In this document: positions 1,538 through 16,420 of the stretch, in pieces
Numbering within the stretch: position 1 is the stretch's first letter
Layout: every line of letters starts with the position of its first letter
Assembly (NCBI GenBank): GCA_022704145.1
Contig: JAKJGY010000084.1
Location: 1 to 16,420, forward strand
Source: Verrucomicrobiota bacterium
GTDB taxonomy: Bacteria; Verrucomicrobiota; Kiritimatiellia; RFP12; UBA1067
Length of the DNA stretch: 16,420 bases
Reading direction: 5' to 3'
The notes under the pieces: model-generated
What the model saw: only the letters and a program-made list of their open reading frames with translations
What the model was told of the DNA's origin: nothing
Databases searched by the model: none
Program-made: the position numbers and the translations under genes

Positions 1538-1549
1538 GGATTCTCCTAT

Positions 1550-4500
1550 TCAGAGCTGTGAGAAGCGGTCAAGGTGGTGCAACACGCGTTGGCGGGCCGT
1601 GTGGTAAGGCTGTGGGGTGTTGGCGTAGTCCGAGCGCACGTCTTGGTTATGGTAGTCTAGCACCATCACGCGGATGATGTCGCTGGCGATATCGCGGGCG
1701 GCTTCGGCGTCACGCTGGCGCAGCAGCGCGAGGAGGTCGAAATCCTCGATGCCCTGCTGGAAGGCGGCCATGCGCAGCGAGCCTGCGAGGCCCTGCGCGG
1801 TGGGGTAGAAGAGCCAGTTGTCGCCGGGCGGGTGGCCGGGGTCAATGGAACCGTTGGGGAGCGGGCCGATGCTGCCGGCGTAGGGGTTTGCGCCGCGGTA
1901 GGCGTTGGCGCCCCAGTTCAGGAGCCCGCTGGCGCGGCAGTGGTTCGCGACCCACGGCAGGGCGCGGCAGCGCCAGAGCGGCGTGTCCAGATGGCTGTTG
2001 GGGTGGGGCGGCCGCGGGGTGCAGGCGTAGTAGATCCAGTTCGGCCGGCCGGCTGCGGCGCGCCGGCCGAGGAGGTCGGGCCAGTCGCGCGAGTAGGCGT
2101 ATCCGTACCACCAGGCGGGGACGTCCACGGTCTCGGAGTAACCGTCAAAGGCGTGGTTCAGCGCCTCCAGGACTCGCGCTTCCGGCAGGTGGTGGCGGAA
2201 GGTTGCGGCCATGGCGCGGTATTCCGGAAGAGACTCCGCCTTGGGCTCGTCCCAGAGCGACTGGCAGTAGCGGTCGGCCCAGCCGCACGCGCGGAGGCGC
2301 TCGCGCAGAGCGGTGTAGAAGGCGGGTAGGAAGCGGTTCTGGTAGTCGTCGGCCGCAAGGCCCAGCGGCTGGGGCGCGCCGTTGCAGGGGGGCGCGAGGA
2401 AAACCGCGCGCGGGTTGCGCAGGTGTTGGCCCACGAGGTGGCGGAAACCGAGGCGCTCGGCCAGCGCGGCCCAACGGTCGAAGCGCGCGAAGTCGAAGGT
2501 CCAGCGGTCGGCGTCGGCCGGGTCGCGCGCGACCGGGATCAGCGGGTGTTCGCCCTGGACGAGCGGCGTGAGGAGGGCGGTGTCGCCGAAGTCGCGCAGG
2601 GTGCGGCACGAGGCTTCCAGCAGCGTCCAGTGGGCCTCGCTCCACCAGGGAGGCGGTGGGCCGTCGGTCAGGTTCTGCGGTTCGGGCCAGAGCCAATGCA
2701 GCACGTCGAAGGTCTGCTGTTCCGGCAGCGCGGTCCGGTAGACGCGCAGCGTGAAGGGCGTCTCGGCGGCGGGGCGGCCGTCCAGGGTGGCGCGGAGCAG
2801 GCCGCTGTAGAGGCCGGGCTGTGCGTCGCGCGCGATGTCGAGACGGACCGCAGCGGCGTAGACGGAGCGGCCGTCGAGCGTCAGGGAGGTCTCGTCCGTC
2901 AGCGCCTCATAGACGTCGAAGGGCGCGAGACGCACGAGCGCGCCGGCGACGTCCTTGGGCGGCGCGGCGCTGGCGCGCGTCTTGGCGCCGCCGCCGTAGT
3001 TGGCTTCGACGTGTACGGCGCGCAGCACCTGCGGGCGGGTGCTGCCCGCGAGGCGCGTGCCTGCCTCGGTAACGGGCGGTTCAACGGCGAAGGAGACCGC
3101 GCCGGCGGCCGGCGCGGCGCGCAGGGCAAAAGGGAGCAGGAGGCGGCCTCCGCGTGGGACGTGGGAGCAGGAGGGCGCGTCGCACGGGGCGCGGTCGGTG
3201 TAGATGCGGTCGAGCGGGTCGGCGGCGGTCAGGCGCAGGACGGTACCGTCGTCGAGCGCGGTCAGGAAGGCGTCGGGCGCGAGGGCTGCGGCGGTGAGGC
3301 GGATCTCGTCGAGCGTGCCGTTCCAGACGTTATCGGCGAGGAGCGGGGCGGCGGAAGTGCCCGCGAGGTTGGCGCCCAGGGCGAAGCGCTTGTCGTAGGT
3401 CGCGGCGTCGCCCAGGTCGCCCACTCCTGAGGCCTGGCCCGCGAGGCCGCCGTCGAGATAGAGGCGCATCGTACCCGAGGGGCCGGCGGCCGGATCCCAG
3501 ACAGCGGCCACGTGGTGGGTGAGTCCGTCGTCGTAGCGGGCGGGCGAGAGGACCTGGGCGGTCTGGCCGCTGTTGGCGGTGGCGAAGAAGCGGATCCGGC
3601 CGTTGATCATGATGACGCGCCAGCCGTGGTATTGCGAGAGGGCGGAGCGGGTGCCGCCGATCACCTCGTAGACGGTCTGCGTGCCGAGGGCGCTGTTGCG
3701 GAAGAAGGCCTCGAAGGTCCAGGCCTGGCCGCGCATGTCCAGCGCGGCGTCGTAGGCGCGGAGGGCGGCGCGGCTGCGCGCGAGACTGCCGGCGTTGAGC
3801 GGAGGGCGGCTGTCGTCGAGAAAGCGAGGGGCGCGGCGTTGTGCCACCTGCGGCGTGAGCGGTGGCGCGGCGGTGGCGGCGGCCGCCAGAGTGAGAGGGT
3901 ACGTGCCGGCGGCGTCGAGCAGGAAAGGCGCGCCGGTCGGCTCGTCGAGCTGCCAGAAGGCGAGGGTTTCGGGCGCGGGAGGCGCGAGGCCGAGGCTGCG
4001 GCGCAGCAGCGTGTCGGCGAGGCGCGCGCCGAGGGCGAGCTGTCCGGCGGCGTCGAAATGCACGGCGTCGGCGTTCACGCCCAGGCCTTCGGTGAAGACC
4101 GTGAAGACGTCGGGGAGCGCGCCGGCTGCGCCGGAATCCTGGTCCGCGTCGGCCTGAGCCTGGCGCACGGCGGCTGAGCCGGGGCGCGTCTGGTAGGGCA
4201 GGACGCGGGCCAGGGCAAACGGCAGGGCGGGCGCGTCGAACTGCTCGCGGACGCGGCGGACGAAGTGCGCGAGGTTGGTGCCGTACGCGGTGCCGGCTGT
4301 GGCGCTGGTGGCGTCGGCCTCGCCCTGCACCCAGAGCATGCCGGTCAGCACCGGGGTGTGGCCCTGTGCGCGCAGGGCGGCGAGGGCGTTGGTGACGGTC
4401 GCGGCGAAGGTCGCGAATTCGGTGCCGAAGGCGGCGCTGTCGGCGGGGCTGGCGCCGGGATGCCAGCTCGTGGTTTCGTAGGAGAGCGGCTCGGTTGTGA

Positions 4501-4870
4501 GCTTGGTGCCGCCGCGGGCGTGCTTGACGAGCGCGATGGTGTCGGTGGGAAAGGCTTCGGCGAGGCGGAAGGCGGCGGCCAGTTCCGGCCCGAAGTTCGT
4601 GGGGCTGACGCCGGCCGGGCCGAGCGGGTTCCAGCGGTTGGCGGGCAGGCCCGAGCGGACGGCGGGCGAGTGGTAGAGCCAGGCGCGGCTCTGGCCGAGC
4701 AGGTTGGTCGGGGCTTGGGCGGCCGCGCCCACGCCCTCCATGTTGGACTGGCCGGCGAGCAGGAAGACGCGGCAGGTCTCGGCAGCGGCGGGGCGCGCGA
4801 AGGCGAACGCGAGTGCGGCGCCGAGCAGCGGGAGCGGGGAGAAGCGGCGCGGCTGTTCGGGAGCGGTCAT
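1550..4870 (-). CDS. Secreted multidomain protein: N-terminal sialate O-acetylesterase-like SGNH domain (SASA/DUF303 family), central LamG/concanavalin-A-like domain, C-terminal DUF4091-like putative glycoside hydrolase domain.
   Basis: ORF 1550..4888 in the track (GTG start). I prefer the ATG at 4870 (MTAPEQPRRFSPLPLLGAALAFAFARPAAA, a signal peptide). LLAGQSNMEG is the hallmark GQSNM motif of the sialic-acid-specific acetylesterase family. The mid-region LDEIRLT is LamG-like. The C-terminal WDEP...NWIYYACTP...PGDNWLFYP...GIEDFDLL pattern is typical of DUF4091. Confidence 0.7.
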   Translation of the reverse strand: MTAPEQPRRFSPLPLLGAALAFAFARPAAAETCRVFLLAGQSNMEGVGAAAQAPTNLLGQSRAWLYHSPAVRSGLPANRWNPLGPAGVSPTNFGPELAAAFRLAEAFPTDTIALVKHARGGTKLTTEPLSYETTSWHPGASPADSAAFGTEFATFAATVTNALAALRAQGHTPVLTGMLWVQGEADATSATAGTAYGTNLAHFVRRVREQFDAPALPFALARVLPYQTRPGSAAVRQAQADADQDSGAAGALPDVFTVFTEGLGVNADAVHFDAAGQLALGARLADTLLRRSLGLAPPAPETLAFWQLDEPTGAPFLLDAAGTYPLTLAAAATAAPPLTPQVAQRRAPRFLDDSRPPLNAGSLARSRAALRAYDAALDMRGQAWTFEAFFRNSALGTQTVYEVIGGTRSALSQYHGWRVIMINGRIRFFATANSGQTAQVLSPARYDDGLTHHVAAVWDPAAGPSGTMRLYLDGGLAGQASGVGDLGDAATYDKRFALGANLAGTSAAPLLADNVWNGTLDEIRLTAAALAPDAFLTALDDGTVLRLTAADPLDRIYTDRAPCDAPSCSHVPRGGRLLLPFALRAAPAAGAVSFAVEPPVTEAGTRLAGSTRPQVLRAVHVEANYGGGAKTRASAAPPKDVAGALVRLAPFDVYEALTDETSLTLDGRSVYAAAVRLDIARDAQPGLYSGLLRATLDGRPAAETPFTLRVYRTALPEQQTFDVLHWLWPEPQNLTDGPPPPWWSEAHWTLLEASCRTLRDFGDTALLTPLVQGEHPLIPVARDPADADRWTFDFARFDRWAALAERLGFRHLVGQHLRNPRAVFLAPPCNGAPQPLGLAADDYQNRFLPAFYTALRERLRACGWADRYCQSLWDEPKAESLPEYRAMAATFRHHLPEARVLEALNHAFDGYSETVDVPAWWYGYAYSRDWPDLLGRRAAAGRPNWIYYACTPRPPHPNSHLDTPLWRCRALPWVANHCRASGLLNWGANAYRGANPYAGSIGPLPNGSIDPGHPPGDNWLFYPTAQGLAGSLRMAAFQQGIEDFDLLALLRQRDAEAARDIASDIIRVMVLDYHNQDVRSDYANTPQPYHTARQRVLHHLDRFSQL

Positions 4871-4917
4871 GTCGAATGGGTGCGGCACGGGTGGCGCCCG
4901 TGCCGCGCGGTTATCGG

Positions 4918-7233
4918 TTACTGCACAAGCATCAGCGTGCCGGTGGGCGTGGCCGTGACGGTCAGGCTGGCGGCGCTGCGGCGTTCGCCGTCGGAAGCGT
5001 CCAGCCGCAGCGTGTACACGCCGCTCCGCGTGAAGGTGACGGAGGTGGCGGGGTCGGAGGGGTCGGCGAAGTCGACGTGGGCGGGGTCGCCGGCGACGAC
5101 CGACCAGCCGGTGACGAGTGCTCCGCCTGCGGGCTGGCCGTCGTCTGCGGCCGTCGCGAGCGCGGAGACGGGCTGGCCGGTCTTGACGGTCATGGCGGTT
5201 TGGGCCTCGATCACGGGCGCGTGGTTGTTGTCCGGGTCGGCGGCGAGGCGGCGGATCTCCTCTTCGTTCAGGAAGCGTGAGTAGATGCGCAGCTCGTCGA
5301 GCACGCCGTCGAAGTTGCGGATGCCGCCAGTGGGCCCGTTGTTCGCGACTACGAAAGGCGTGGTGAAATCCACCGCGCCGGGGAAGGGGGTGGTGGTGGT
5401 GGGTTGGGTGGTGTAGGGGTTGGAGATCACCTTGGCGCCGTCGAGGTACATGACCTGTCGCGAGCCGCTGGCCGCGGGGCTGCCGTCGAAGAGGACGGCC
5501 GCGTGGAACCAGCGGTTGGAGGTTATGCCCGCATCTGGCCAGGTCCAGGTGTACTGGGTGGACCCCATCCCGGTCGCGCGCGAGGAGAGGTCGAACTTAC
5601 GGGTCGAGGGATTGTAGAGGATGTAGAAGTTGGGCCCGATGTTGTAGACCCGCTGGATGACGTTGCCGCTGGCGCGCTTGGTGTAGGCCTCGTCGTGGTA
5701 GAACCAGAAGGAGAAGGTCATGTTGGTCGAGTAGGTCGGGAAGGAGGAGCCGACGCCGACAGCGTCGATGCGCGGCGCGCGAAACGCGAGGCCGAGCTTG
5801 CCCGGCTGCAGGAGGGCCGCAAGGTTGAGCGAGAGGGTGATGGCGCCGGCGCTGTCGGTGGCCTTCTTGTCGGTGGGCTCGTCGTCCATCTTCCACCAGT
5901 GGATCAGGCCGTCGGCGAGGTCGCTGGCGGGGGCGGTGACGGCGACGGTGATCTCGTCGCTGTCGCTGGCCGCGCCGTCGTCGGCGGTCAGCCGCACCAC
6001 GTAGGTGCCGGAGGCCGAGAAGCTGGCGGCGGTGGCGTTGGTGAAGGGGTTGTCGAAGAAGACGGCGCCGGGACCGCTGACCTTGGACCAGCGCAGGCGC
6101 GCCGGGCCCGGGTTACCGTCGTCGGTGACCGTGGCGGCGAGCGGCGCGGAGGCGCCGAGCACGGTGCCGGTCGCGGCCCAGGAGGCGGTCACGTTCGGGG
6201 CGGCGTTACCGGCGGGCGCGCTGGCGAGGCGCTCGACCGAGACCTCGTCGGCCACGGCGCCCAGCTCGCTGAAGGCGGTCAGGCGGAAGATGTAGGAGCC
6301 GGGCTCGGGCAGGGTGACGGCGGTTTCGGGGACGTCCGGGAATTCGATGACGGGCGCGGCGCCGTCGGGTGCGGAGACCACGCTCCAGAGGGAGGTGGCC
6401 GAGAAAGCGCGGGTAAAGAGGTTGGTGGGGGCGAGACGGCCTTGGAGGCGCGTCGTGTCGCGGTAGACGGACTGGGCGCCGCCGGCGTCGACGGCGAGCG
6501 GCATATTCTGGTAGAGCGCGAAGACCTCATGGTCCGTCAGGGCGTCATTGTAGATGCGCACCTCGTCCAAGGCTCCGTTCATCGCACGCGTGCCGCCGTT
6601 GGCCGTATTGCCGAGAAAGCCGAAGCTAGCGCCGATGTTATCGGGGGAGTAGGACTTGGGCGTCTGCACGTCGACGCCGCAGCGGATGCCGTTCAGGTAG
6701 AAGACCGGCTGCGCGACCCAGTCGGTGGCGTTGGTGTAGGTCCGCCGCACCACGAGGGAGGCGTGCTGCCACCGGTTGGTCTCGAACTTGAAGGGGATCT
6801 GATCTGGCGTGTTCCACTCGGCTCGGGTAGGCGTAATTCCGAGGCCGATACCGAAGCGCCCTGGCGTATTGAACGCGAACTGATAATACAGGGTGTTGAA
6901 CTGGACGATCTTCGGATAGAGGTTGTTGGTGTACGAGTCGGGAACGTTGAACCAAACGGAGAGCGTGAAATTCGTCAGGTGGGTGCTGGCGTTGAAGCGT
7001 GCCCAGGCGTTGGTCGTGCCGTCGAAGTAGGCGGCCTTGCCGAAGCGGCCGTCCACCATTGTGACGCCGGAGCCGAGCGTACAATGTCGGCCGGAACCGG
7101 AGGCGTCGGAAAGGGTGGTGGCGCCCGGTGCCTCGTCCATGGGCCACCAGCCGATGAGGCGCGGTGCGGCGAAGGCGTGTAAGGAGGCGCAAGTAAGTGC
7201 CAGGCAGAGGACGCGAAGGACAGGTAGGTGCAT
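4918..7233 (-). CDS. Secreted protein with two LamG (concanavalin-A-like lectin/glucanase) domains and PKD/Ig-like domains.
   Basis: 771-aa ORF. Signal peptide MHLPVLRVLCLALTCASLHAFAAP. Two LamG signatures (LDEVRIYNDALTDHEV and LDELRIYSRFLNEEEI). Ig/PKD-like segments (YIFRLTAFSELG, TYVVRLTADDGAASDSDEITV, VYTLRLDASDGERR). GGAGG RBS 6 nt before the ATG at 7233. Confidence 0.7.
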   Translation of the reverse strand: MHLPVLRVLCLALTCASLHAFAAPRLIGWWPMDEAPGATTLSDASGSGRHCTLGSGVTMVDGRFGKAAYFDGTTNAWARFNASTHLTNFTLSVWFNVPDSYTNNLYPKIVQFNTLYYQFAFNTPGRFGIGLGITPTRAEWNTPDQIPFKFETNRWQHASLVVRRTYTNATDWVAQPVFYLNGIRCGVDVQTPKSYSPDNIGASFGFLGNTANGGTRAMNGALDEVRIYNDALTDHEVFALYQNMPLAVDAGGAQSVYRDTTRLQGRLAPTNLFTRAFSATSLWSVVSAPDGAAPVIEFPDVPETAVTLPEPGSYIFRLTAFSELGAVADEVSVERLASAPAGNAAPNVTASWAATGTVLGASAPLAATVTDDGNPGPARLRWSKVSGPGAVFFDNPFTNATAASFSASGTYVVRLTADDGAASDSDEITVAVTAPASDLADGLIHWWKMDDEPTDKKATDSAGAITLSLNLAALLQPGKLGLAFRAPRIDAVGVGSSFPTYSTNMTFSFWFYHDEAYTKRASGNVIQRVYNIGPNFYILYNPSTRKFDLSSRATGMGSTQYTWTWPDAGITSNRWFHAAVLFDGSPAASGSRQVMYLDGAKVISNPYTTQPTTTTPFPGAVDFTTPFVVANNGPTGGIRNFDGVLDELRIYSRFLNEEEIRRLAADPDNNHAPVIEAQTAMTVKTGQPVSALATAADDGQPAGGALVTGWSVVAGDPAHVDFADPSDPATSVTFTRSGVYTLRLDASDGERRSAASLTVTATPTGTLMLVQ

Positions 7234-7257
7234 GTCTAACCTCCAAAGTTACAGGAC

Positions 7258-7349
7258 GAGTATGGTATATCGATAAGGAGCCGTCAATCGGTCAGGCGTC
7301 CTGTTTGACAAAAAATCAGGTAGGTTGGTATATTAAAAACAGGAGCAGG
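7258..7349. promoter_or_regulatory. Divergent promoter region between the LamG operon and the GntR gene. Sigma70-like promoter for the GntR gene: TTGACA at 7305-7310, 18-nt spacer, TATATT at 7329-7334 with an upstream TGG (extended -10). Two TGGTATAT motifs (GGTATA at 7264-7269 and 7327-7332).
   Basis: Read directly from the sequence. The AGGAGCAGG RBS precedes the ATG at 7352. Confidence 0.45.
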
Positions 7350-7351
7350 TT

Positions 7352-8068
7352 ATGGCCAATTACAGTATGGCGCGGCAGGTCGATGCGGCGGCAGGGAACA
7401 CGATGTCGCGTCGGATTTACGATGTGTTAAAGGCGGATATCGAGACGGGGCGGCTGAAGCCAGGGGCGCGGCTGGTGCGAAAGGCGGTGGCGGGACGGCT
7501 AGGTGTGAGCACGATCCCTGTAATTGAGGCGTTTTACCGGCTGGAGATTGACGGTTACGTGGAGAACCTACCGCTGGTGGGCTGCCGCGTGCGGGCGCTG
7601 ACGGTGGAGGAGCTGGATGACGACCTGATGTTGCGCGAGGCCCTGGAGTGTCAGGCTGCGCGTCTGTGCGCGGGTCGATTGAGTGTGGAGGAGGGGGAGC
7701 GGCTGATGCGCAAGGCCCGGCAGGTGGACCGGTTCATCCGTGCCGACACGCCGGACGCGACGCTGGGGAACCAGGCACATTTCGAGTTCCATCTCGAGGT
7801 GGGGCGGCTGAGCGGGCGGCGGGTGTTCGGCGAGCTGCTCAAGAAGGTCTGGTTCCAGCGCTATATGAGCCTGAACAGCCTGAAGGCCATGCGTTTTCAG
7901 TCATTGCCGGACGGGTGGCACCAGATCTTAGTGCGGCGGCTCATGAAGGGTGATCCGGACGAGGCGGAGCGTGCCATGCGGGAGCATGTGCAGTTCGGGC
8001 GGCAGGACGACCGTAACGCGCTTGAGCTGTATCTTCGGGAGCGAGTCCGGCCGGGCCTGTCGCGCTGA
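7352..8068 (+). CDS. GntR-family transcriptional regulator, FadR subfamily (N-terminal HTH plus C-terminal FCD ligand-binding domain). NanR-like candidate regulator of the adjacent sialoglycan locus.
   Basis: 238-aa ORF. RIYDVLKADIETGRLKPGARLVRKAVAGRLGVSTIPVIEAFYRLEIDGYV matches a GntR HTH. The all-helical C-terminal domain is FCD-type. The gene is divergent from the glycan operon. Confidence 0.85.
   Translation: MANYSMARQVDAAAGNTMSRRIYDVLKADIETGRLKPGARLVRKAVAGRLGVSTIPVIEAFYRLEIDGYVENLPLVGCRVRALTVEELDDDLMLREALECQAARLCAGRLSVEEGERLMRKARQVDRFIRADTPDATLGNQAHFEFHLEVGRLSGRRVFGELLKKVWFQRYMSLNSLKAMRFQSLPDGWHQILVRRLMKGDPDEAERAMREHVQFGRQDDRNALELYLRERVRPGLSR
8049..8067. repeat. 19-bp exact direct repeat, copy 1 (GGCCGGGCCTGTCGCGCTG). 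It forms the last codons of the GntR gene.
   Basis: Identical 19-mer at 8889-8907, exactly 840 bp downstream. Confidence 0.8.
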
Positions 8069-8150
8069 GTGCGTCCGGGTGTGGCGCCGTCCGCGAGGAT
8101 TAAGGTTCGATTCGCAACGGTGGTGACGCCAATGGACAGGGGCGGGAGGG

Positions 8151-8179
8151 TTGTCAGCTAGGTCTTTTGCGGTTACAAT
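8151..8179 (+). promoter_or_regulatory. Sigma70-like promoter of the tandem-wHTH regulator: TTGTCA at 8151-8156, 17-nt spacer, TACAAT at 8174-8179. The -10 overlaps the 28-bp palindrome.
   Basis: Read directly from the sequence. The predicted transcription start falls inside the palindrome, the classic layout of an autorepressor operator. Confidence 0.5.
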
Positions 8180-8205
8180 TCCCACACCTCTGGAGGTGTG
8201 GGAAT
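8178..8205. repeat. Perfect 28-bp palindrome ATTCCCACACCTC-TG-GAGGTGTGGGAAT. It overlaps the RBS (GGAGG) and the start codon of the downstream regulator. Candidate operator.
   Basis: 13-bp arms are exact reverse complements. A second copy at 8775-8802 has the central dinucleotide flipped. Confidence 0.9.
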
Positions 8206-8770
8206 GAATAGTTATCATCCGACATTATGGCGGACGTGCCGGGCGCTGGCGAACGTGAAACGGCTCGGATGTCTGAAAGCGGTTCTGGCCGAGCCGGCTC
8301 TGACGGTCGGCGAAGTGGCCGGGCGCGTCGGCATCGCGGAGAACCATGTGAGCGAGTGTCTGCGGGCGCTGCAAGCGCGCGGGTTGATACAGGCGCGCCG
8401 TCACAGCCGCTGGGTGCAGTATGTCCCTGTTCCGGACCCGTTGGTGCCTTGCGCGAGACCTCTCCTGTCGGCGCTTCGGAGGGCGATGCTGAAGGAGAAC
8501 AGACCGGCAGCCGCGCTGGTAAGCGCACTGACCGCGTTTACGCATCCTCGGCGGATCGTGATCATGAGTTGTCTGCAGAAGCATCGCTCCATTTCTGCCG
8601 AAGCGCTGGCGCGGTTAACCGGAATTAGTGTGACGGCCTTGTATCGTCATCTGGGCAAGCTGAGCGCGCGCGGTCTCCTAGCTGCCGATCAAGAAACGTG
8701 GTGCGCGGTGACGGTCAGTGACCCGTTGCTGATGACGCTATTGGGTCTTCTTGATGTGAAGGAGGAATAG
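8204..8770 (+). CDS. Single-chain transcriptional regulator with two tandem ArsR/SmtB-like winged-helix domains.
   Basis: The track ORF is 8198..8770 (GTG start). I prefer the ATG at 8204, which has a GGAGG RBS at 8192-8196. N-terminal half: LANVKRLGCLKAVLAEPALTVGEVAGRVGIAENHVSECLRALQARGLIQARRHSRWVQY. C-terminal half: HPRRIVIMSCLQKHRSISAEALARLTGISVTALYRHLGKLSARGLL. Both fit the ArsR-type HTH pattern. Confidence 0.6.
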   Translation: MNSYHPTLWRTCRALANVKRLGCLKAVLAEPALTVGEVAGRVGIAENHVSECLRALQARGLIQARRHSRWVQYVPVPDPLVPCARPLLSALRRAMLKENRPAAALVSALTAFTHPRRIVIMSCLQKHRSISAEALARLTGISVTALYRHLGKLSARGLLAADQETWCAVTVSDPLLMTLLGLLDVKEE

Positions 8771-8774
8771 TCTG

Positions 8775-8802
8775 ATTCCCACACCTCCAGAGGTGTGGGA
8801 AT
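8775..8802. repeat. Second copy of the 28-bp palindrome (ATTCCCACACCTC-CA-GAGGTGTGGGAAT), 4 bp after the regulator's stop codon. It is the exact reverse complement of copy 1.
   Basis: Read directly from the sequence. Confidence 0.9.
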
Positions 8803-8888
8803 CAGGTGCGATGGACTACGAGAAGGGTGTGTTTCGGGTTGTAACGCCAGGTTCGGAGTATCAGGCGGTATGGCCACTGGGCCGGGCC

Positions 8889-8907
8889 TGTCGCGCTGGG
8901 CGGGGCC
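8889..8907. repeat. 19-bp exact direct repeat, copy 2 (GGCCGGGCCTGTCGCGCTG). It lies 8 bp beyond the rnhC stop.
   Basis: Identical to 8049-8067. Confidence 0.8.
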
Positions 8908-8914
8908 GGGCGGC

Positions 8915-9895
8915 TTACTGAGCCTCGCTGGAGCGCGAGACGGCCTGGCCTTCAGGCCCGAGCGCGGCGCGCGAGCTGCCGCAGGTCGCGAGCACCTGGT
9001 CGGCGGTTCGGAAATGGCACTTGCAGGCCTTGAGCAGGACGGCCGGCCCGGCCTTACGGACCAGTTCAACGGCCGAGGCCTTGACCTGTTCGGATGCGCC
9101 TTTATGCGCTTGGATACCGTAGGTCTCGCCGAGGCGGCCGAGGCTGCGCAGGAAAGACTCGCGGGCGAGCACTGAGGCGGCCGCCACGGCGATGTCCGAC
9201 TCCGCCTTGTGGCGCTGCTCCAGCTTGATCGAACGGCCTTTCTTCATCAGCGCGCGCTCGATCACCTGCTTGGCGCCGAACTGATCGGCCACGGCCCGGG
9301 GGCAGCCGGGCACAGTCTCAAGCAGGTTCTCAATACACCGGGCGTGCGCCCAGGCCAGGAGGCTGTTGACGTTGCGGATCTTGGCATAGAGGCGGTTATA
9401 GGCCTCGGGGCCGATCGAGACCATCGCGAAGCGCTGGGGCCCGAGGAGCTGGCGGGTCTTGCTGCCGATGAATAATACCGCCTTGTCGCTGAGCTGCTTG
9501 CAGTCTTTGACGCCCAGATCCTGCATGGCGTGCGCGAGGTCGGGGTCGACGTATACCGCGCAGGCCACAAGCGGCCCGAAGAAGTCGCCCTTGCCGCTCT
9601 CGTCGATACCCATGTGGGGCGCGACCAGGTCGGGGTTGAGCACCTCCTCGTAGCCGACGGTCGCGTTCTGCAGCACGTTGGGCTCAAGAAAGAAGAGCAC
9701 GAAATCCTCAGCGCCCTTGCCCTGCACCAGGCACTTGCCGCTCTTATACAGGTTGACCACGCAGTCCTGGGCTTCGACGGCGACTACGGTATGGGGAACC
9801 TGCTTGGGCCGGTAGTTTCCCATCTTGAGGAGGAGCTTGAGCGCCTCCTGCTGCTCTTGATTGAGGACGAACGTGTAGGAGTTCTTCTTTTCCAT
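8915..9895 (-). CDS. rnhC: Ribonuclease HIII.
   Basis: The catalytic motif MGIDESGKGDFFGPLV (DESGKGD) lies about 100 aa from the N-terminus, after a TBP-like N-terminal domain, which is HIII rather than HII architecture. The track starts the ORF at a TTG at 9934. I prefer the ATG at 9895 (MEKKNSYTFVL). Confidence 0.8.
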   Translation of the reverse strand: MEKKNSYTFVLNQEQQEALKLLLKMGNYRPKQVPHTVVAVEAQDCVVNLYKSGKCLVQGKGAEDFVLFFLEPNVLQNATVGYEEVLNPDLVAPHMGIDESGKGDFFGPLVACAVYVDPDLAHAMQDLGVKDCKQLSDKAVLFIGSKTRQLLGPQRFAMVSIGPEAYNRLYAKIRNVNSLLAWAHARCIENLLETVPGCPRAVADQFGAKQVIERALMKKGRSIKLEQRHKAESDIAVAAASVLARESFLRSLGRLGETYGIQAHKGASEQVKASAVELVRKAGPAVLLKACKCHFRTADQVLATCGSSRAALGPEGQAVSRSSEAQ

Positions 9896-9944
9896 CGCGC
9901 GCCCATTAGACCATAAAGCGGCCTCGGGTGGCAAGCGAACGGGC

Positions 9945-11174
9945 TCAGGATCCGGCGGCGAGGGCGGCCAGAGGGAAGGGCTCGAGGCAGCGCGGCAGGA
10001 TGCCTTGCAGTGCGGCGATCAGCACACCGTAGTTGACCACCGGAACCCCGGCGGCCTGGGCCTGCCGGATGCGGTAGTGCATCTCGCGCCGGTTGAGCAT
10101 ACAGCCGCCGCAGTGGATCACCAGCGCATAACGCGCCAGGTCGCGCGGATACTTCATGCCGCTGGCGTGCTCGAACTCGAGGGCGCGGCCGGTATGCTGC
10201 CGCAGCCAGCGCGGGATCTTGACGGTGCCGATGTCGTCGGACTGGCGGTGGTGCGTGCAACCTTCGGCCACGAGGACGCGGTCGCCGTCCTTGAGCGACT
10301 CAATGGCCTTGGCGCCGCGCACGAGGGCCTCGAGGTCGCCCTTGTAGCGCGCGAAGAGGATCGAAAACGAGGTCAGCGGCACGTCGCGCGGCGTGTCGGC
10401 CGAGACTTTGGCGAAAACCTGTGAGTCGGTGACCACCAGCCGGGGCTTCCGGGCGAGGAGCGCGAGGGTCTCGCGCAGCTCGAACTCCTTGGTGACCACC
10501 GCGATGGCGTCAGCCTCGAGCACGTCGCGGATGACCTGCTGCTGCGGCAGGATCAGGCGGCCCTTGGGCGCGGCCTTGTCAATCGGCGTGACCAGCACGA
10601 CAAGATCCGAGGGACGGAGCAGATCACCGAGGAGCTGGAACTTGTCGGCCTCCTCCGGCACGGCCTGGGCCAGGGCGAGCTTGAGATCCTCGACCCCGTC
10701 GCCGGTCGCAGACGAGACAGCGTGGGCCGGCCGGCCGGACGCGGCGGCGGCCTCGGCGAGCTGAACGGCGTCGGGCGCGGCGAGGTCAGCCTTGTTGTAC
10801 ACGGCGAAAAGCGGGAGGCCTTTGGTGCGCACAAGGCCGAGGATCTCACGCTCGCAGTCGCCTAGGCCGTGCTCGGCCTCCAGCACCAGGAGGGCCACGT
10901 CGGTCTTATTCAGCACATCGCGCGCGCGCTGCACGCGAAGGGCGCCGAGCGCACCCTCGTCGTCGAGCCCCGGGGTGTCGATGATCATGACCGGCCCGAG
11001 CGGCAGCAGCTCCATCGCCTTGTAGACGGGGTCGGTGGTGGTGCCCTTGACGGCCGAGACGATCGAGACCTCCTGGCCGGTGAGGGCGTTGATGAGGCTG
11101 GACTTACCGACGTTACGTCGGCCGAAGAGGGCGAGGTGCGTGCGTTCGCCTTGGGGTGTCTGATTGAGGCTCAT
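9945..11174 (-). CDS. hydF: [FeFe]-hydrogenase H-cluster maturation GTPase HydF.
   Basis: 409 aa. G1 motif GRRNVGKSSLINAL, TTTDPVYK, DTPGLDD and NKAD GTPase motifs. C-terminal EGCTHH...(x45)...HCGGC matches the HydF CxHx(44-53)HCxxC cluster-binding signature. The protein aligns along its whole length with what I recall of Thermotoga HydF. Confidence 0.88.
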   Translation of the reverse strand: MSLNQTPQGERTHLALFGRRNVGKSSLINALTGQEVSIVSAVKGTTTDPVYKAMELLPLGPVMIIDTPGLDDEGALGALRVQRARDVLNKTDVALLVLEAEHGLGDCEREILGLVRTKGLPLFAVYNKADLAAPDAVQLAEAAAASGRPAHAVSSATGDGVEDLKLALAQAVPEEADKFQLLGDLLRPSDLVVLVTPIDKAAPKGRLILPQQQVIRDVLEADAIAVVTKEFELRETLALLARKPRLVVTDSQVFAKVSADTPRDVPLTSFSILFARYKGDLEALVRGAKAIESLKDGDRVLVAEGCTHHRQSDDIGTVKIPRWLRQHTGRALEFEHASGMKYPRDLARYALVIHCGGCMLNRREMHYRIRQAQAAGVPVVNYGVLIAALQGILPRCLEPFPLAALAAGS

Positions 11175-11431
11175 AGGGGTCTCGGGGTGTGGAAAAGTGT
11201 GTCAGCGGGTATTCAACCAGACCCGCCGCGCCTCGTCCAGTGTCTTCGTCCGTCCGTGGCGCGGGACGCCTCGGGGGGGGGAGGGCTCCCGGGGAGGGGC
11301 CGTCCAGACTGGCGGCCATCCGTCCGGCGCGGCATATTCGGCCGTGGACGGCGCCCCGTATTATGCTATCCTGAACACCGAACCGGGGACAGGGCATGCG
11401 TGACCGGCGTTCGAGAAGACGGGGGTGAGCT

Positions 11432-12145
11432 ATGTTGCGTCTGGGCGTGAACATCGACCATGTGGCGACGCTGCGCCAGGCACGGCGCACGGCGTATCCG
11501 AGCCTGGTTGAGGCGGCGGCGGCCTGCGAGCGGGCTGGCGCGCACGGGATCACGATCCACCTGCGCGAAGACCGGCGCCATATTCAGGACGCGGACGTCT
11601 ACGCGCTGCGCAAGACGCTGGCCGTGCATCTCAACTTGGAGATGGCCAACCATCCCGATATCGTGGCTGTGGCGCTTGACGTGCGGCCGGAGGAGGTCTG
11701 CCTGGTGCCGGAGCGGCGCGAGGAGCTGACGACCGAAGGCGGGCTGGACGTGGCGGGGCAGCTTGACGAGCTTGCGCCGGTGGTGGCGGCGCTGCGCGAC
11801 GCGGGGGTGTGCGTCAGCCTGTTTATCGATCCCGACCTGCGCCAGGTGGAGGCGGCGGCCGCGCTCGGCGTGCCGTACGTCGAGCTGCATACCGGCGCTT
11901 ATGCCGAGCGTGCGGGCGAGGCGCGCGAGCGGGAGCTGGCGCGGCTGGTCGCTGCGGCCGCGCGGGCGCATGAGGTGGGCCTGACGGTTAACGCGGGGCA
12001 TGGGCTGAGCCTGGACAATGTCGGGCCGGTGCTGGGGCTGCCGCATCTCGACACGCTTAACATCGGGCACAGCATTGTCTGCCACGCGGTCTTCGTGGGC
12101 CTGGAACGCGCGGTGCGCGCGATGCTGGAGAAGATGGGGATGTAG
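11432..12145 (+). CDS. pdxJ: Pyridoxine 5'-phosphate synthase.
   Basis: 237 aa. The N-terminus [18 protein letters not shown] is the canonical PdxJ signature. Full-length TIM-barrel-like pattern. Confidence 0.92.
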
Positions 12146-12147
12146 CC

Positions 12148-13254
12148 ATGTCGCTGCAGCGCGGAAACTTCGGGATCGAGTTCGACGAGCGTCCGGGCTT
12201 TCCTTACCGGCGGTTGCTCTGGACAGCCGCGCTGATCCCGCTGGCGGCGGTGGCCCTGGTGCTGACGCGCGGGTGCGCGCCGGAGGGCGAGGGCACGGCG
12301 GAGAACAATGATCCTTTGACGGCCGCCCGGTTCGACGCTCCGGAGGTGCGGGTCCACCGCGAGCGGCCGTCGTTCCTACAGCACCTGTTCCGCCGTCGCG
12401 CCGAGACGGGGGCTCCCGCCGCGGCGGCGGGCGGCGGGCAAGGGGACGCCGGCGAGGCGCGGGGCGCGGGCTGGCATGCGGCGGGTGGGGCACGGCAGAC
12501 GCCAGGGGCCAAGGCGTTGCCGGCCGAGGTGCGGCGGCTGCTGGAGCTGGCGGCGGCGCGTGAGGCCGACGGCGATCTGGCGGCGGCGCGCGAGGCGCTC
12601 CGTAAGGCGCTGGTGCGCGGGGACGCCCAGGAGCTGCGGCCGTTTGTCGAGCGCAAGCTCGGGGCGGTCAACGTGGCGTTGCTCTTCACCGACCGGCCTG
12701 CGGCGGAGAAGGCGCGGCACCGCATCGCGCCGGGCGATCTGGTGGGCAAGCTGGCGCGGCGTTACGGCTGCACGCAGGAGTATCTGCTTAAAGCGAACGG
12801 GATCGACCGTCCTGAGGCGCTGCGCGTCGGGCGGGAGGTCTGGGTGCTCACGCGGCCGGTCTTCGAGCTGACCGTGCTCAAACGGGACTCGAGTGCGGTC
12901 CTGACGCTCAACGGGCGCTTCTTCAAGCGTTATCCGATCGGGGTGGGGCGACCGGGCGAATCGCCCAACGGCGAATATGTGGTGCGCGACCGTGTGTGGC
13001 GGCCCGCCTACCGCGCGCCGGGGGTGGGCGAGGTGCCGTCAGGGCACCCCAACAACATCCTGGGGGCTGCCTGGCTCGGCCTGGCTGCGGCGGAGGGCAC
13101 ACCCGTGGCCCCCGGGTTCGGCCTGCACGGGACCGCCAACGAGTCGTCGCTCGGCCGGCCGTCCGAGGAGGGCCGCCTCCGTTTCGGCAACGCCGACATC
13201 GAGGAGCTGTTCACGCTGCTGCCGTCGGGCTCACGCGTGAACGTCGCCGACTGA
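12148..13254 (+). CDS. Membrane-anchored LysM-domain protein with a C-terminal L,D-transpeptidase (YkuD)-like domain that lacks the catalytic cysteine.
   Basis: 368 aa. ATG is 2 nt after the pdxJ stop. N-terminal hydrophobic segment LLWTAALIPLAAVALVL. LysM-like IAPGDLVGKLARRYGCTQEYLLKANGI. YkuD pattern YPIGVGRPGESPNGEY...NILGAAWLGL...GFGLHGT is present, but SEEGRLRF stands where SxGC[IV]R is expected. There is no Cys anywhere in the domain. Confidence 0.75.
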   Translation: MSLQRGNFGIEFDERPGFPYRRLLWTAALIPLAAVALVLTRGCAPEGEGTAENNDPLTAARFDAPEVRVHRERPSFLQHLFRRRAETGAPAAAAGGGQGDAGEARGAGWHAAGGARQTPGAKALPAEVRRLLELAAAREADGDLAAAREALRKALVRGDAQELRPFVERKLGAVNVALLFTDRPAAEKARHRIAPGDLVGKLARRYGCTQEYLLKANGIDRPEALRVGREVWVLTRPVFELTVLKRDSSAVLTLNGRFFKRYPIGVGRPGESPNGEYVVRDRVWRPAYRAPGVGEVPSGHPNNILGAAWLGLAAAEGTPVAPGFGLHGTANESSLGRPSEEGRLRFGNADIEELFTLLPSGSRVNVAD

Positions 13255-13708
13255 GGCGCCGGACGGCGCGCCACACGCGCGGGGTCGTCGGGTGCGGGCC
13301 CTGGGGTTGGTGTCGCGCGCGCCCTCGCAGGCTGCGCGTGGAGGGCGGCTCTAACATGGGCATGGCCCGCAACCCAAATTGGAAGACTGGAATGATGGAA
13401 TGGTGGAAGGATGGGGGTTGAGACCGAAGCAACCGAAGTGATCTTCCAACATTCCAGTATTCCACCCTTCCCAAACAACTTGTATTTTATCAGTGTTGTT
13501 CGTTCGTAAGGCAAAACATACATGCGGACGGGTTGCGTACCAGGCCTGCCCACCCCCTTCGTCCCGATGCGCGGCGCCGGACGAAATGCGCTTGTGGCCA
13601 AGCAAATCAATAATATCAGACCGTCCCAGAAATATTTCAAAGATACCATTTGACAACAGACATAAACAAATCGTAACATAGGGGCGTTTTAAGGAGGAGG
13701 TGTGTCTC
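13255..13708. other. AT-rich intergenic island (about 45% GC, against about 70% background) containing imperfect GGAATG-type repeats and a hairpin.
   Basis: GC counted by hand on four 60-nt lines: 37%, 60%, 55%, 33%. Partial inverted repeats at 13386-13409 and 13446-13461. Confidence 0.6.
13650..13700 (+). promoter_or_regulatory. Sigma70-like promoter (TTGACA at 13650-13655, 18-nt spacer, TAACAT at 13674-13679) and a consensus AGGAGGAGG RBS at 13692-13700.
   Basis: Read directly from the sequence. This is the strongest SD in the window. Confidence 0.4.
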
Positions 13709-14056
13709 ATGCCGACGGACAAAGAGCATTTGAGCGTCGAGGAGGTGGCGGACGAGCTGGGCGTGACGTACCAGTTGATCTACCGTCTGGTGCGGTCGGG
13801 CGAGCTGCCCGCGGCGCGTCTGGGCAAGCTATACCGGGTGTCGCGGGCCGATCTGAACGCCTATCTGGAGCGCAGCAAGCGCGATGTCGTGGGCGGCGGC
13901 GGGACGTGCGCGGCGTGCGGTACGTTCTATCGCAGCAAGGGCGCGCTGCAGCAGGCCTGCGCCGCCTGTGGCGCGCCGGTCTGCTTTGACTGCTGGATGC
14001 GCCTGGGCGTACGGACGTGCAAGGAACATGGCGCGGCCGAAACCGCGGCCCGCTGA
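13709..14056 (+). CDS. Small DNA-binding protein: N-terminal HTH_17 (excisionase/MerR-type) domain fused to a C-terminal Cys-rich zinc ribbon.
   Basis: The track ORF is 13700..14056 (GTG start). I prefer the ATG at 13709. LSVEEVADELGVTYQLIYRLVRSGELPAARLGKLYRVSRADLNAYL is a typical excisionase-family HTH. The C-terminus carries CAAC-x14-CAAC-x4-CFDC-x9-CKEH. Confidence 0.65.
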   Translation: MPTDKEHLSVEEVADELGVTYQLIYRLVRSGELPAARLGKLYRVSRADLNAYLERSKRDVVGGGGTCAACGTFYRSKGALQQACAACGAPVCFDCWMRLGVRTCKEHGAAETAAR

Positions 14057-14151
14057 GCGTGCGCGTGCGGCGTGCGACGGAATGGATTTTTCGTGCATGA
14101 ACGTATGGATCTGTTATCCTGTGGCAACGTAAGAAACAAACGAGGTGGACG

Positions 14152-15810
14152 ATGGGCATATTCAGTGACCGGTGTGACGCGTTGATCGACCCCAACACGG
14201 GGCGGGCCTTGGGTGGCGAGGCGCTGGCGCAGGCGAAACTGGAGCCGAAGTGGCCGCGTTGCAACAACTCCGTGCGCAAGGCGGCGCGGTTCTGCAACAA
14301 GTGCGGCTCGGGCGCCCCGGGCGGCTGGTGGCGCTGCCCCTCGTGCAAGAAGTGGATCGGCAACGAGGCGCAGTTCTGCTCGCACTGCAACACCCCGCTC
14401 TTCCCGGAGGACCGCTCGGTCATGGCCGGCGGTGTCTGGCGCAAGGATGTCGGCCTGTTCGCGCAGCGCTTTGAGATCGGCGACGTCAAGCGGCTGCTCC
14501 AGAGCGACCTTCTGGTGCAGGAGGGCACGGTGGCGGTGGTCTTGGACGGCGGCCACGTGCACGGTATCCTGGGCAGCGGACGTCACAACCCGGACAGCCT
14601 GGCGCGTGCGATCAACTGGTTCGGCGACCCGCCGCCGCGCTCGGTGGTGATGGTGGATGTCGGCGATGTGGCGCTGCCGTTGCGCGTCGAGGGGCTGCGT
14701 ACGGCCGAGCATCATCCGATCGCGTTCTACGGCGAGGTGATCCTGCGTTTCGGAAACGACAAGGCCGCGGCCTTGGCCTTGCTGGAGAACGCGCTTAAGG
14801 ACGCCCGCCACCTGGCGTATAAGGAAATCTCAGAGAGCCTGCAGGGGGTGGTGCGGGCGGCGGTCGACGCGCTGTGCGTGACCTCCACGCTCGACGACCT
14901 GGTGCGCGACCCGGAGCGGCGGACGCGCCTGCAGGAGACGATGACGCGCATGATCGGCGCGGATATCGGCCGACGCGGGTTGGCGGTGGTGCGGGTCTCC
15001 TCGGCCGAGTTCACCGGCGACGAGTACGAGGCGTACGCCGAGCGCCTCGGCGACGTGGACATCAAGCGCCGCGAGCAGGAATACGCCGACACGGTCCGTA
15101 AGCTGAAAAAGAAGGAGGAGATGGAGGCGTACAAGGACGCGGACGAGCTGCGCGCCTTCAAGGCCCTCATCGACAGCGAGTACCGCGTCTCTCAGGCCAC
15201 GCGCGACCGCGAGTGGGAGCTGCTCAAGCGCGAGTGGCAGCATGACGACATCCGACATCAGCAGCTTCTGGAGGTCGAGCGCACGGCGCATGCGATCGGT
15301 GTGCAGGTCCAGAAGGACGACTACGGCCGCGACAAGGACATCAAGGACGCGGGCGCGGCGGCGGAGGCGCGCGACCAGACGTTCGGGCAGGAGCGCAAGG
15401 AGGCGGAGTGGGCGCTCGACATGCGGTCCCGTAAGGATCAGATCGAGCTGGACCGCAAGGCGGCCGAGGCCAAGCGGCGCGAAGGCATGACCACCGAGCA
15501 GATGCTGGCGGACGTGGACGACCCGTCGCTGCGCAAGGAGCTGGTCGAGCTGATGAAGGCGGAGCGCAACCGCACCATGACGCCGGAGCAGATGCTGGCC
15601 GAGGCGGCGCTGCACAACCCGGCGGCGGCCGAGGCGCTCGCGCGCATGGCCGACCGTACGCGGCAGAACGCCGAGCAGGTGCTGGCCGAGATGAAGAAGC
15701 TCTATGCCGACGCGGCCGAGCGCCAGGACCGGAACCTCAAGACCATGCTCGAGCCGGCCGTGGAGGCCGCCAAGCGACAGGCGGCCCAGCCGCAGACGAT
15801 CGTGCATTAA
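14152..15810 (+). CDS. Flotillin-like protein: N-terminal double zinc ribbon, central Band-7/SPFH domain, C-terminal long charged coiled-coil with MT[TP]EQMLA repeats. No transmembrane segment.
   Basis: 552 aa. Zinc ribbon: FCNKCG...RCPSC...FCSHC. SPFH-like block: LLVQEGTVAVVLDGGHVHGILGSGRH...VDVGDVALPLRVEGLRTAEHHPIAFYGEVILRF...LAVVRVSSAEFTGDEYEAYAERL. The C-terminus is E/R/K/A-rich and contains GMTTEQMLADV and TMTPEQMLAEAA. GAGGTGG RBS. Confidence 0.65.
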   Translation: MGIFSDRCDALIDPNTGRALGGEALAQAKLEPKWPRCNNSVRKAARFCNKCGSGAPGGWWRCPSCKKWIGNEAQFCSHCNTPLFPEDRSVMAGGVWRKDVGLFAQRFEIGDVKRLLQSDLLVQEGTVAVVLDGGHVHGILGSGRHNPDSLARAINWFGDPPPRSVVMVDVGDVALPLRVEGLRTAEHHPIAFYGEVILRFGNDKAAALALLENALKDARHLAYKEISESLQGVVRAAVDALCVTSTLDDLVRDPERRTRLQETMTRMIGADIGRRGLAVVRVSSAEFTGDEYEAYAERLGDVDIKRREQEYADTVRKLKKKEEMEAYKDADELRAFKALIDSEYRVSQATRDREWELLKREWQHDDIRHQQLLEVERTAHAIGVQVQKDDYGRDKDIKDAGAAAEARDQTFGQERKEAEWALDMRSRKDQIELDRKAAEAKRREGMTTEQMLADVDDPSLRKELVELMKAERNRTMTPEQMLAEAALHNPAAAEALARMADRTRQNAEQVLAEMKKLYADAAERQDRNLKTMLEPAVEAAKRQAAQPQTIVH

Positions 15811-15861
15811 AGGCGCCCGTTGATCCAGCGTGCGGGAGCTGCCCGCTTCAGGGGGGACGAC

Positions 15862-16420
15862 CATGGCTCGTGTGAAATGTCAGGCGTGCGGCAAGAGCAC
15901 GGAGGAGGGCTTGTTTTGCGAGAAGTGCGGGGCGGAGCTTGCGGGGGGCTACGCGCCCGCCGCCGCGTCCGCCCCTGCGTTCGCGCAGCCGGAGCCGGCG
16001 CGGGACCCCGTGTTCATCCGGACACCCCCCGAGGTGCGCGCGCCGCGCGTGGTCGTGCTGGAGCCGGCGGTCGAGGCGCCGCAAGCCTGTGAGCCCGCGA
16101 CGCCTGCAAGGGCCGGACGGTCGGCGGCGGAGCCGGTGTCGGCCGCCTGCGAGCTGGGGGATTGCCCGTGGCTGCTGGTCGAGAACGATAAGGCCGGCTT
16201 CTTTGTGGCGGGCACGCCCGGCCTGCTGCGGCTGCGGCTGACGGCGCAGGAGGAGGGCCTGCTCAACCTGCGGGTCGGGCTGAGTCTGGCGTACGCGACG
16301 TGCGAGCCCGTGCCGCCGTTCGAGCTGTATCGCCCGAAGGCGCTCCAGCAGACGGTGACCAGCCTGAGCGTGCCGCCGCTCAAGCCCGGGGCGTATGTGG
16401 CCGAGCTTACGGTCTCCTTT
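15862..16420 (+). CDS. Protein with an N-terminal zinc ribbon (CQACG-x10-CEKCG), a Pro/Ala-rich linker and a beta-rich domain. Partial; it continues beyond the window end.
   Basis: My own translation from the ATG at 15862 gives 186 codons with no stop (absent from the track because no stop falls in the window): MARVKCQACGKSTEEGLFCEKCGAELAGGYAPAAASAPAFAQPEPA...CELGDCPWLLVENDKAGFFVAGTPGLLRLRLTAQEEG. It follows the SPFH gene by 51 nt on the same strand. Confidence 0.5.

Follow-up and report, generated by a model that had tools for sequence, protein, structure and literature searches.

A zinc-ribbon SPFH gene trio from a Kiritimatiellia bacterium and the larger cluster that it opens in PVC relatives: a candidate bacterial counterpart of archaeal ESCRT systems

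Two described groups of systems come closest to the genes considered here, which lie in a 16,420-nucleotide stretch of DNA (‘the window’) from a Verrucomicrobiota bacterium of the class Kiritimatiellia (GenBank assembly GCA_022704145.1, contig JAKJGY010000084.1, positions 1 to 16,420 of the forward strand) and which consist of a regulator gene (A), a gene for a zinc-ribbon protein with an SPFH domain (B) and the first part of a third, zinc-ribbon gene (C), cut where the source contig ends at base 16420. In Bacillus subtilis, the soluble zinc-finger SPFH protein YdjI, acting alongside YdjH and the double-zinc-ribbon protein YdjG, is required for the membrane placement of PspA, an ESCRT-III homologue (PMC8581546; PMC11237479). 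Archaeal ESCRT-III/Vps4 loci include variants with FHA proteins and Ser/Thr kinases, or with an SPFH protein that carries a coiled coil and a zinc ribbon (PMC10936438). According to reviews, bacteria have ESCRT-III relatives (PspA and Vipp1) but appear to be without a Vps4-like ATPase (PMC7619361).

A, B and C form a functional unit that is conserved in relatives from the Planctomycetes-Verrucomicrobia-Chlamydiae (PVC) superphylum and opens a larger cluster of genes there, the trio being followed by genes for a predicted Snf7-like protein (S), a AAA ATPase (V), a further zinc protein (Y), kinases and envelope proteins. From the sequences and by analogy we lean, if only somewhat, towards reading the trio as the promoter-proximal core of a PVC-specific (Kiritimatiellae/Lentisphaerae) ESCRT-III/SPFH membrane-remodelling or repair cluster, which looks like an apparently undescribed bacterial counterpart of the archaeal ESCRT systems. 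A, B and C are read as its regulator, scaffold and phospho-adaptor because the parts match those of the B. subtilis YdjI/PspA system and of the archaeal ESCRT variants. No paper on the A-B-C cluster was found in the literature, and databases annotate its proteins as ‘hypothetical’.

The cluster resembles pspA-ydjGHI in that an anchorless, zinc-bearing SPFH protein is encoded together with a protein of the ESCRT-III superfamily (and, in pspA-ydjGHI, also with a second protein that has two zinc ribbons). It differs in that its ESCRT-III-family partner matches Snf7 and not PspA_IM30, in that B, which is likened to YdjI by architecture, bears its zinc ribbons as a pair at the N-terminus, and in that the other partners are an FHA protein, a AAA ATPase and Hanks-type kinases, with no sigma-W context. 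The archaeal ‘Halo_FHA’ and ‘Meth_adaptin’ variants (Makarova et al. 2024, PMC10936438) offer the same parts list: an ESCRT-III protein, a AAA ATPase, an FHA protein with an extra C-terminal domain, kinases, an SPFH-coiled coil-zinc ribbon protein and Ig-like domains. Unlike them, the present cluster is bacterial, its AAA ATPase is not a demonstrable Vps4/CdvC (neither MIT nor Vps4_C was detected, and the score falls below the CdvC cutoff), and it has no demonstrable homology to the ESCRT-II-like winged-helix, CdvA or adaptin-appendage proteins.

The better known HflK/C-FtsH and FloT/FloA-NfeD systems share with B an SPFH domain and, behind it, a long helical stretch, and HflK/C pairs with the AAA-family protein FtsH, a likeness to the AAA ATPase of the cluster; in contrast to HflK/C and the flotillins, B has neither a transmembrane (TM) segment nor a hairpin nor an NfeD neighbour, and Pfam finds no protease domain in V. 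Finally, operons in which a bacterial ESCRT-III-superfamily gene stands beside a classical AAA+ gene have been described, and read as ATP-dependent remodelling systems, by Ravi et al. (2024, PMC11237479). Their contexts are different ones (TM-bearing Snf7 homologues, ABC transporters, OmpA/PBPB, or a Vps4 with snf7 displaced), and the sole zinc-ribbon SPFH example given is the Firmicute ydj operon; PVC taxa and FHA go unmentioned in the main text of that paper, as do Lentisphaerae, Kiritimatiellae and FHA in the one supplementary file covered here.

The cluster in related genomes

A scan of one genome per species gave 54 loci with B, all of them in PVC metagenome-assembled genomes (MAGs) labelled Kiritimatiellae, Lentisphaerae, Victivallales or Verrucomicrobiota, among which the identities of B range from 29% to 86%. 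Linkage was counted with family hidden Markov models (HMMs). C is the co-directional neighbour of B in 46 of the 47 loci that have room for it, and in 40 of 48 loci A is encoded upstream. The first-pass annotation, made from the letters of the window, had proposed a three-gene module; the trio is indeed a conserved unit, but it forms the front of a longer cluster that is cut by the end of the window.

The co-directional order in the relatives begins with the HTH_17 gene, the zinc-ribbon SPFH gene and the gene for an FHA protein of ~520 aa, and then continues, in variable order, with S (~200 aa), V (~370 aa), Y, envelope proteins of the periplasm (lipoproteins and LpoB-like proteins), and receptor Ser/Thr kinases that bear an FGE-sulfatase-like domain on the extracytoplasmic side. 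Of the 32 loci with at least 9 kb of downstream sequence, 23 encode S, 19 encode V and 23 encode Y, always on the strand of the trio; 17 hold all three, and 25 hold at least one of them. The placement is strongly one-sided: in the 15 loci with 9 kb on both sides, S was counted upstream in none and downstream in nine, V in one and nine, and Y in none and eight.

S is predicted, on sequence and model, to be Snf7/ESCRT-III-like. All of the 20 members searched match Pfam Snf7 at E <= 0.01 (the best at 7e-8), and S of locus L004 scores 32.4 bits against a gathering score of 27.3; none of the 20 matches Pfam PspA_IM30 at the same threshold, and an assignment to PspA/IM30 was rejected, PspA and Vipp1 being weaker fold matches only. 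The AlphaFold model of S consists of an alpha1-alpha2 helical hairpin (residues 9-57/61-97) and four shorter helices, and its top Foldseek matches belong almost entirely to the ESCRT-III superfamily (Asgard ESCRT-IIIB, CdvB2 (TM-score 0.46-0.50), Snf7, CdvB, IST1, CHMP1B, PspA and Vipp1), with probabilities of 0.9-0.99 and E-values of only 0.09-1. A single S sequence found nothing in the PDB, and the S profile found Snf7 weakly (E 0.23). The protein begins with FLFF and a basic run and, in most members, ends in an amphipathic LDxRIxxGQxRVKxLL helix behind an acidic linker, elements which we take to resemble the membrane anchor and the MIT-interacting motif (MIM) of ESCRT-III proteins. The family is small and closed, with 191 representatives among 1.84 billion.

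V, judged by its motifs (Walker motifs, a SKW(H/Y)GESE pore loop and a YxxFxxxRFG C-terminus), is a classical AAA ATPase and not a demonstrable Vps4/CdvC. It was the only query to align end to end with the NCBIfam CdvC model NF041006, and in searches of the PDB with the full protein two-domain Cdc48/p97 dominates, which is uninformative as to clade. Three natural fusions join S to V, at L052 7720-9111 (60 bits), at L043 20976-21968 (47 bits) and in protein P0261 (511 aa); the first two hold the N-terminal half of S in loci that have no separate S gene, and P0261 holds S at full length. Such fusions are strong evidence that S and V act together, and V, given its adjacency and fusion to S, may by analogy work like Vps4.

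Y is a protein of ~300 aa (for example L004 17088-17984, and L006 2360-3253 on the - strand) with an N-terminal di-zinc domain, a conserved helical remainder, an acidic tail and no detectable family; in the clade that has a 193-aa S, the di-zinc domain is reduced to 4-5 ligands. Its helical C-terminal half was considered, and rejected, as a second ESCRT-III paralogue: hhalign against S gives a probability of 1.4%, Pfam Snf7 is unmatched, and the PDB returns a CHMP4B fragment only, at E 1.2. The envelope set also varies between loci (for example L007 13657-16853 and L006 9571-11470), and in many of these it includes lipoprotein-like proteins (262 and 274 aa), an LpoB-like protein that has a TM segment at its C-terminus, a multi-TM protein and a bPH_2 protein; a periplasmic arm of the system is suggested by this set.

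For the lineage of the window itself, the extension of the contig that the first-pass annotation had called for is provided by Logan contig L063, which is 99.93% identical to window positions 13454-16420 and runs 6 kb further. It gives the full length of C (P0156, 516 aa), followed by a gene for a receptor Ser/Thr kinase with Pkinase and FGE-sulfatase domains. Further along L063, an AAA_14/DUF4143 ATPase gene (7364-8584) lies between two Ser/Thr kinase genes; in the related locus L001 the position between the two kinases is taken by V, and the DUF4143 ATPase may be a replacement or an insertion.

Domain content of the trio

B (14152-15810, + strand, 552 aa) carries a double zinc ribbon, predicted to bind zinc, at residues 8-79 (14173-14388), an SPFH domain and a charged helical tail. 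Residues 35-80 match Pfam DZR (28.6 bits against a gathering score of 27.3), and residues 122-312 (14515-15087) match Band_7, PF01145 (31.9 bits against 23.6). Eight cysteines (C8, C37, C48, C51, C62, C65, C76 and C79) are invariant in 34 homologues of 47-81% identity; an insert of 27 aa, which splits the first knuckle (C8...C37), is absent from the short forms P0114 and P0118. The protein shows no TM-like or hydrophobic segment (maximum Kyte-Doolittle value 1.22), and its C-terminal half (313-552) is charged and helical, with D, E, K and R making up 41% of the last 257 residues. The soluble, anchorless SPFH protein with a double zinc ribbon that had been read from the letters is thus confirmed. 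Two tandem M(T/S)xEQ(I/M)LA motifs, conserved in the family, lie in the C-terminal helical region at residues ~440-500.

A total of 207 homologues of B were found, and PF01145 is precomputed on 118 of 120 among the matches listed; the nearest named relatives come from Kiritimatiellae MAGs, and a scan of 2.9 million viral contigs returned no relative of B. Against PDB sequences, both B as a single sequence and its family profile found zinc ribbons (eL43 and LapB) only, and no SPFH chain; as far as can be judged from its sequence, the SPFH domain is very divergent. No flotillin model is listed among its Pfam matches, and neither NfeD nor an FtsH protease occurs among the called neighbours of the B loci. 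That B might be an ordinary HflK/C or FloT orthologue, a case which would have spoken against a new architecture, was rejected on the strength of its having no NCBIfam match at all, no TM segment and no NfeD neighbour. The statement that the architecture is unlike any named system also stands, there being no PADLOC model for B or C and no NCBIfam family for B.

A (13709-14056, + strand, 115 aa) bears out the excisionase-type helix-turn-helix that had been assigned to it: residues 8-56 match Pfam HTH_17 (E 5e-16, 59 bits against a threshold of 27), and the protein matches the TIGR01764 excisionase model (60.4 bits against 28.8). With no integrase nearby, these matches do not imply that A acts as an excisionase. 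Its C-terminal domain (residues 67-107, 13907-14029) was a different matter, since the first-pass annotation had placed a zinc ribbon on each of the three proteins. The ligand pattern runs C67-x2-C ... C-x2-C-x3-C-x2-C ... C-x2-H107 (in the window protein, CAACG...ACAACGAPVCFDCW...TCKEH), the same eight ligands are shared by 46 of 46 distinct family members, and in Pfam no zinc-ribbon model rises above threshold, the domain giving sub-threshold matches to IBR, FYVE_2 and DZR only. A four-cysteine (C4) ribbon was therefore rejected: with eight shared ligands throughout the family, the module is, by its pattern, a di-zinc finger of a different fold class.

The same ligand spacing opens protein Y. 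HMMs of the two domains recognise each other with 21.6 and 26.9 bits, whereas none of 920 composition-matched shuffles scores above 9.9 bits, and hhalign joins the di-zinc domain of A to the N-terminal domain of Y at E 5e-5; the two are probably homologous. The idea that one small zinc-ribbon module is common to all three proteins of the trio consequently does not hold in detail, because the module of A matches Y and not B or C. Zinc ribbons are retained for B (through DZR) and for C (through a CxxC-x9-CxxC pattern that remains below the Pfam threshold).

That pattern lies at residues 6-22 of C (15863-16420 on the + strand, continuing past the end of the window, which holds the first 186 of 516 codons) and is kept in 36 of 39 family members; the corresponding Pfam zinc-ribbon match is 17 bits. 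A Pro/Ala linker (~27-100) follows, and from ~103 onward (16169-16420) the start of an Ig-like beta-sandwich. The 186-aa fragment in the window finds no homologues when used as a query, and the family was reached through the full-length L001 protein. In the AlphaFold model of a homologue, P0121 (pLDDT 72.9), a disordered linker (28-109) leads to a beta-sandwich (115-215), three helices, an FHA-like beta domain (~300-430), a Cys loop and a C-terminal beta domain, in agreement with the linker and beta-rich domain originally described. Foldseek likens this model to complement MG/Ig-like, TRAP and RhoGDI-type sandwiches and to the FHA-1 domain of Rv1747 (E 1.2e-3).

The FHA part of C lies past the end of the window. 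With Pfam FHA (PF00498, gathering score 20.7), the L001 and L005 proteins score 22.7 and 26.4 bits, and P0156, the C of the window itself, scores 15.9 bits, below the gathering score; taken with the model, C is a putative FHA phospho-reader. Its family profile matches archaeal ArnA across the ribbon and the linker (E 1e-5). C resembles ArnA (PMC10470591), which works with Ser/Thr kinases, in that its N-terminal zinc ribbon leads through a long flexible linker to a putative FHA domain. It differs in being 2.4 times longer, in having an Ig-like beta-sandwich and a helical segment, cysteines clustered internally and a further beta domain at the C-terminus, and in being without a vWA (ArnB-like) partner.

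Transcription unit and surroundings

A, B and C are consecutive and co-directional, as first described, with gaps of 95 bp (A-B) and 52 bp (B-C), a Shine-Dalgarno-like motif before each gene and no terminator-like site in a scan of 13650-16420; on this layout they are predicted to form a real co-transcribed unit. Long open reading frames (ORFs) antisense to B are the usual artefacts of high GC content. The unit is preceded by a 454-bp spacer, which begins after the transpeptidase gene that ends at 13254 and contains a sigma-70-like promoter, TTGACA-18-TAACAT, at 13650-13679 on the + strand (score 10/12), followed by the Shine-Dalgarno sequence of gene A (AAGGAGGAG, 13691-13699, + strand, read from the sequence; GAGGAGG in relatives). 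In eight related loci this promoter (TTGACAACAGA..TAAACAAAACGTAA) and the 5' untranslated region (5'UTR) are preserved at almost every base, in contrast to the DNA in front of them, which has diverged; the -35 and -10 elements, spacer and 5'UTR are kept at the DNA level in L001, L003, L009, L011, L012, L031 and L034.

The promoter of the AT-rich spacer is accordingly a good and conserved one, but it is not, as had been claimed, the strongest in the window, since one at 7305 scores 11/12. The proposal that the trio is a horizontally acquired cassette finds no support: the conserved AT-rich leader, the GC content of the module (0.61-0.71) and its spread through the whole class argue against a recent acquisition.

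The spacer also holds a 29-nt imperfect inverted repeat (13381-13409/13443-13471, 83% complementary, with a 33-nt loop and GGAAT/GGAAG-like units), which is not conserved upstream of A in relatives; an Rfam search of the upstream spacer gave chance miRNA-like matches to this hairpin and nothing else. The remainder of the window, with a GC content of 60-75%, encodes a GH123/SASA glycosidase, a LamG/PKD protein, GntR and tandem winged helix-turn-helix (wHTH) regulators, RNase HII/HIII, HydF and the LysM-YkuD transpeptidase. The 11/12 promoter match (7305-7334), which has a TG extension, stands before the GntR-FCD regulator gene, and a 10/12 match (8151-8179) before the tandem-wHTH regulator gene. 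Two ORFs, at 289-1677 (+ strand, 462 aa) and 11366-12493 (- strand, 375 aa), are without a Pfam match and may each be a gene or a shadow ORF.

Function of the cluster and competing explanations

Among the three roles for the trio that the first-pass annotation had offered as speculation (defence, stress and membrane remodelling), the last fits best. If the ESCRT-III/SPFH reading is right, the receptor kinases would respond to a signal in the envelope by phosphorylating Thr residues of cytoplasmic proteins, and C would recognise these pThr marks with its FHA domain, its zinc ribbon and Ig-like domains bridging to partners. Anchorless B would oligomerise into an SPFH scaffold lying peripherally against the cytoplasmic membrane, on its inner side, dock through its double zinc ribbon and nucleate or position S polymers, as the soluble YdjI does for PspA in B. 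subtilis, and V would spend ATP to remodel or recycle the polymers. A would bind the conserved promoter, and the di-zinc domain that it has in common with Y could couple transcription to the state of assembly; the zinc modules in general would serve as docking elements. The output would be the repair, stabilisation or vesiculation of the membrane during envelope stress.

Several observations weigh against this reading. The assignment of B to the SPFH family rests on one modest Pfam match. V, although it has the pore loop, falls outside Vps4/CdvC: it scores 190-206 bits against NF041006, for which the cutoff is 650, the profile of its N-terminal domain finds no MIT in the PDB, and at E <= 0.1 it matches neither MIT nor Vps4_C in Pfam. 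The second region of homology (SRH) of V is RTGRFD, presumably the type of Cdc48/FtsH/PAN as opposed to the RRRF of Vps4. The kinases are common in these genomes, and with six loci upstream against twelve downstream, among the 15 with 9 kb on both sides, their linkage is the weaker one. In 7 of the 32 long loci none of S, V and Y is nearby, and in the lineage of the window C is followed directly by a 1082-aa kinase, after which come the DUF4143 ATPase and another kinase; S, V and Y are all absent from the 5 kb beyond C in L063. The link to ESCRT-III is therefore drawn through the relatives and is putative for the window genome, in which the partners of the trio may lie elsewhere or the trio may work alone.

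A bolder form of the ESCRT-III/SPFH reading, to which we give only tentative credence, is that Kiritimatiellae and Lentisphaerae own a genuine ESCRT-like machine which performs reverse-topology scission (in budding, in repair or in a step of division). In it, a Snf7-clade ESCRT-III protein would form the polymer and a AAA ATPase devoted to it, in some cases fused to it, would take the polymer apart; the zinc-ribbon SPFH protein would act as nucleator and the FHA protein as adaptor for cargo or phospho-marks, next to receptor Ser/Thr kinases. The machine would have arisen through ancient exchange with Archaea or through independent assembly from the same building blocks.

The loci that are without S, V and Y, the window lineage included, speak for the first of the rival explanations, namely that A-B-C is a self-contained phospho-signalling and scaffold trio, independent of ESCRT-III, of which S and V are frequent but separable neighbours. 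The kinase, which directly neighbours C in L063, would phosphorylate; C would be an ArnA-like, phospho-dependent regulator acting with the DNA-binding protein A; and B would scaffold or chaperone some other client. The profile match of C to ArnA is in keeping with such roles, as ArnA, built of a zinc ribbon, a flexible loop and FHA, co-represses transcription in a phospho-dependent manner (PMC10470591). We nevertheless regard this explanation as unlikely, given that S, V and Y lie downstream on the same strand in 72-78% of the long loci and almost never upstream, that the di-zinc domain shared by A and Y ties both halves of the cluster together, and that there are precedents which tie SPFH proteins to the ESCRT-III family (PMC8581546; PMC10936438).

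Decidedly less probable is that the cluster is an anti-phage or conflict system, of a kinase-sensed, abortive-infection type, whose action would be to damage or seal the membrane. Conflict systems are among the places where Ser/Thr kinases and sensor domains of the FGE-sulfatase type occur; the genes that flank the cluster vary from locus to locus and some of them are defence-like (RecBCD in L004 and a reverse transcriptase in L007); and at the level of domains PADLOC matches A to mad1, the kinase to PD-T4-6 and mad6, and the AAA ATPase to IetA. These PADLOC (v2) matches are, however, generic ones to kinase, AAA and HTH domains, and none was returned for B, C, S or Y, nor for the two envelope families (lipoprotein and LpoB-like). 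Membership of MADS was rejected in particular: MAD1 reaches 32.3 bits against a cutoff of 80, the domain-level matches are limited to mad1, mad6 and mad8, and a methyltransferase is found in no locus. Nor does the cluster contain a nuclease or a toxin-like effector, the viral contigs hold no relative of B, and the range of B identities over the 54 distinct loci, with a promoter conserved in close relatives, is read as vertical inheritance and not as the turnover of a defence island. The last explanation, that the three genes are unrelated and have come by their zinc modules and their adjacency through coincidence, has next to no chance of being correct, for although bacterial proteins often contain CxxC pairs and a high GC content yields many ORFs, it is already refuted by synteny in 40-46 of ~48 species-level loci, and the invariant cysteines, conserved promoter and operon-like gene spacing tell against it as well.

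What sets the ESCRT-III/SPFH cluster apart is that a bacterial gene cluster with a conserved promoter couples a Snf7-like protein to a AAA ATPase of its own, natural fusions included, and that accessory domains known from archaeal variants of ESCRT recur in it, namely FHA, Ser/Thr kinase, and SPFH joined to a coiled coil and a zinc ribbon. Were the machine a genuinely ESCRT-like one, it would contradict the view that bacteria have no Vps4-type partner for ESCRT-III. If the more general reading is right, the cluster would provide a defined and testable bacterial system for the nucleation of ESCRT-III polymers by SPFH proteins and for its control by phosphorylation, would bear on whether these pairings are of ancient or of convergent origin, and would add another eukaryote-like membrane feature to the PVC superphylum.

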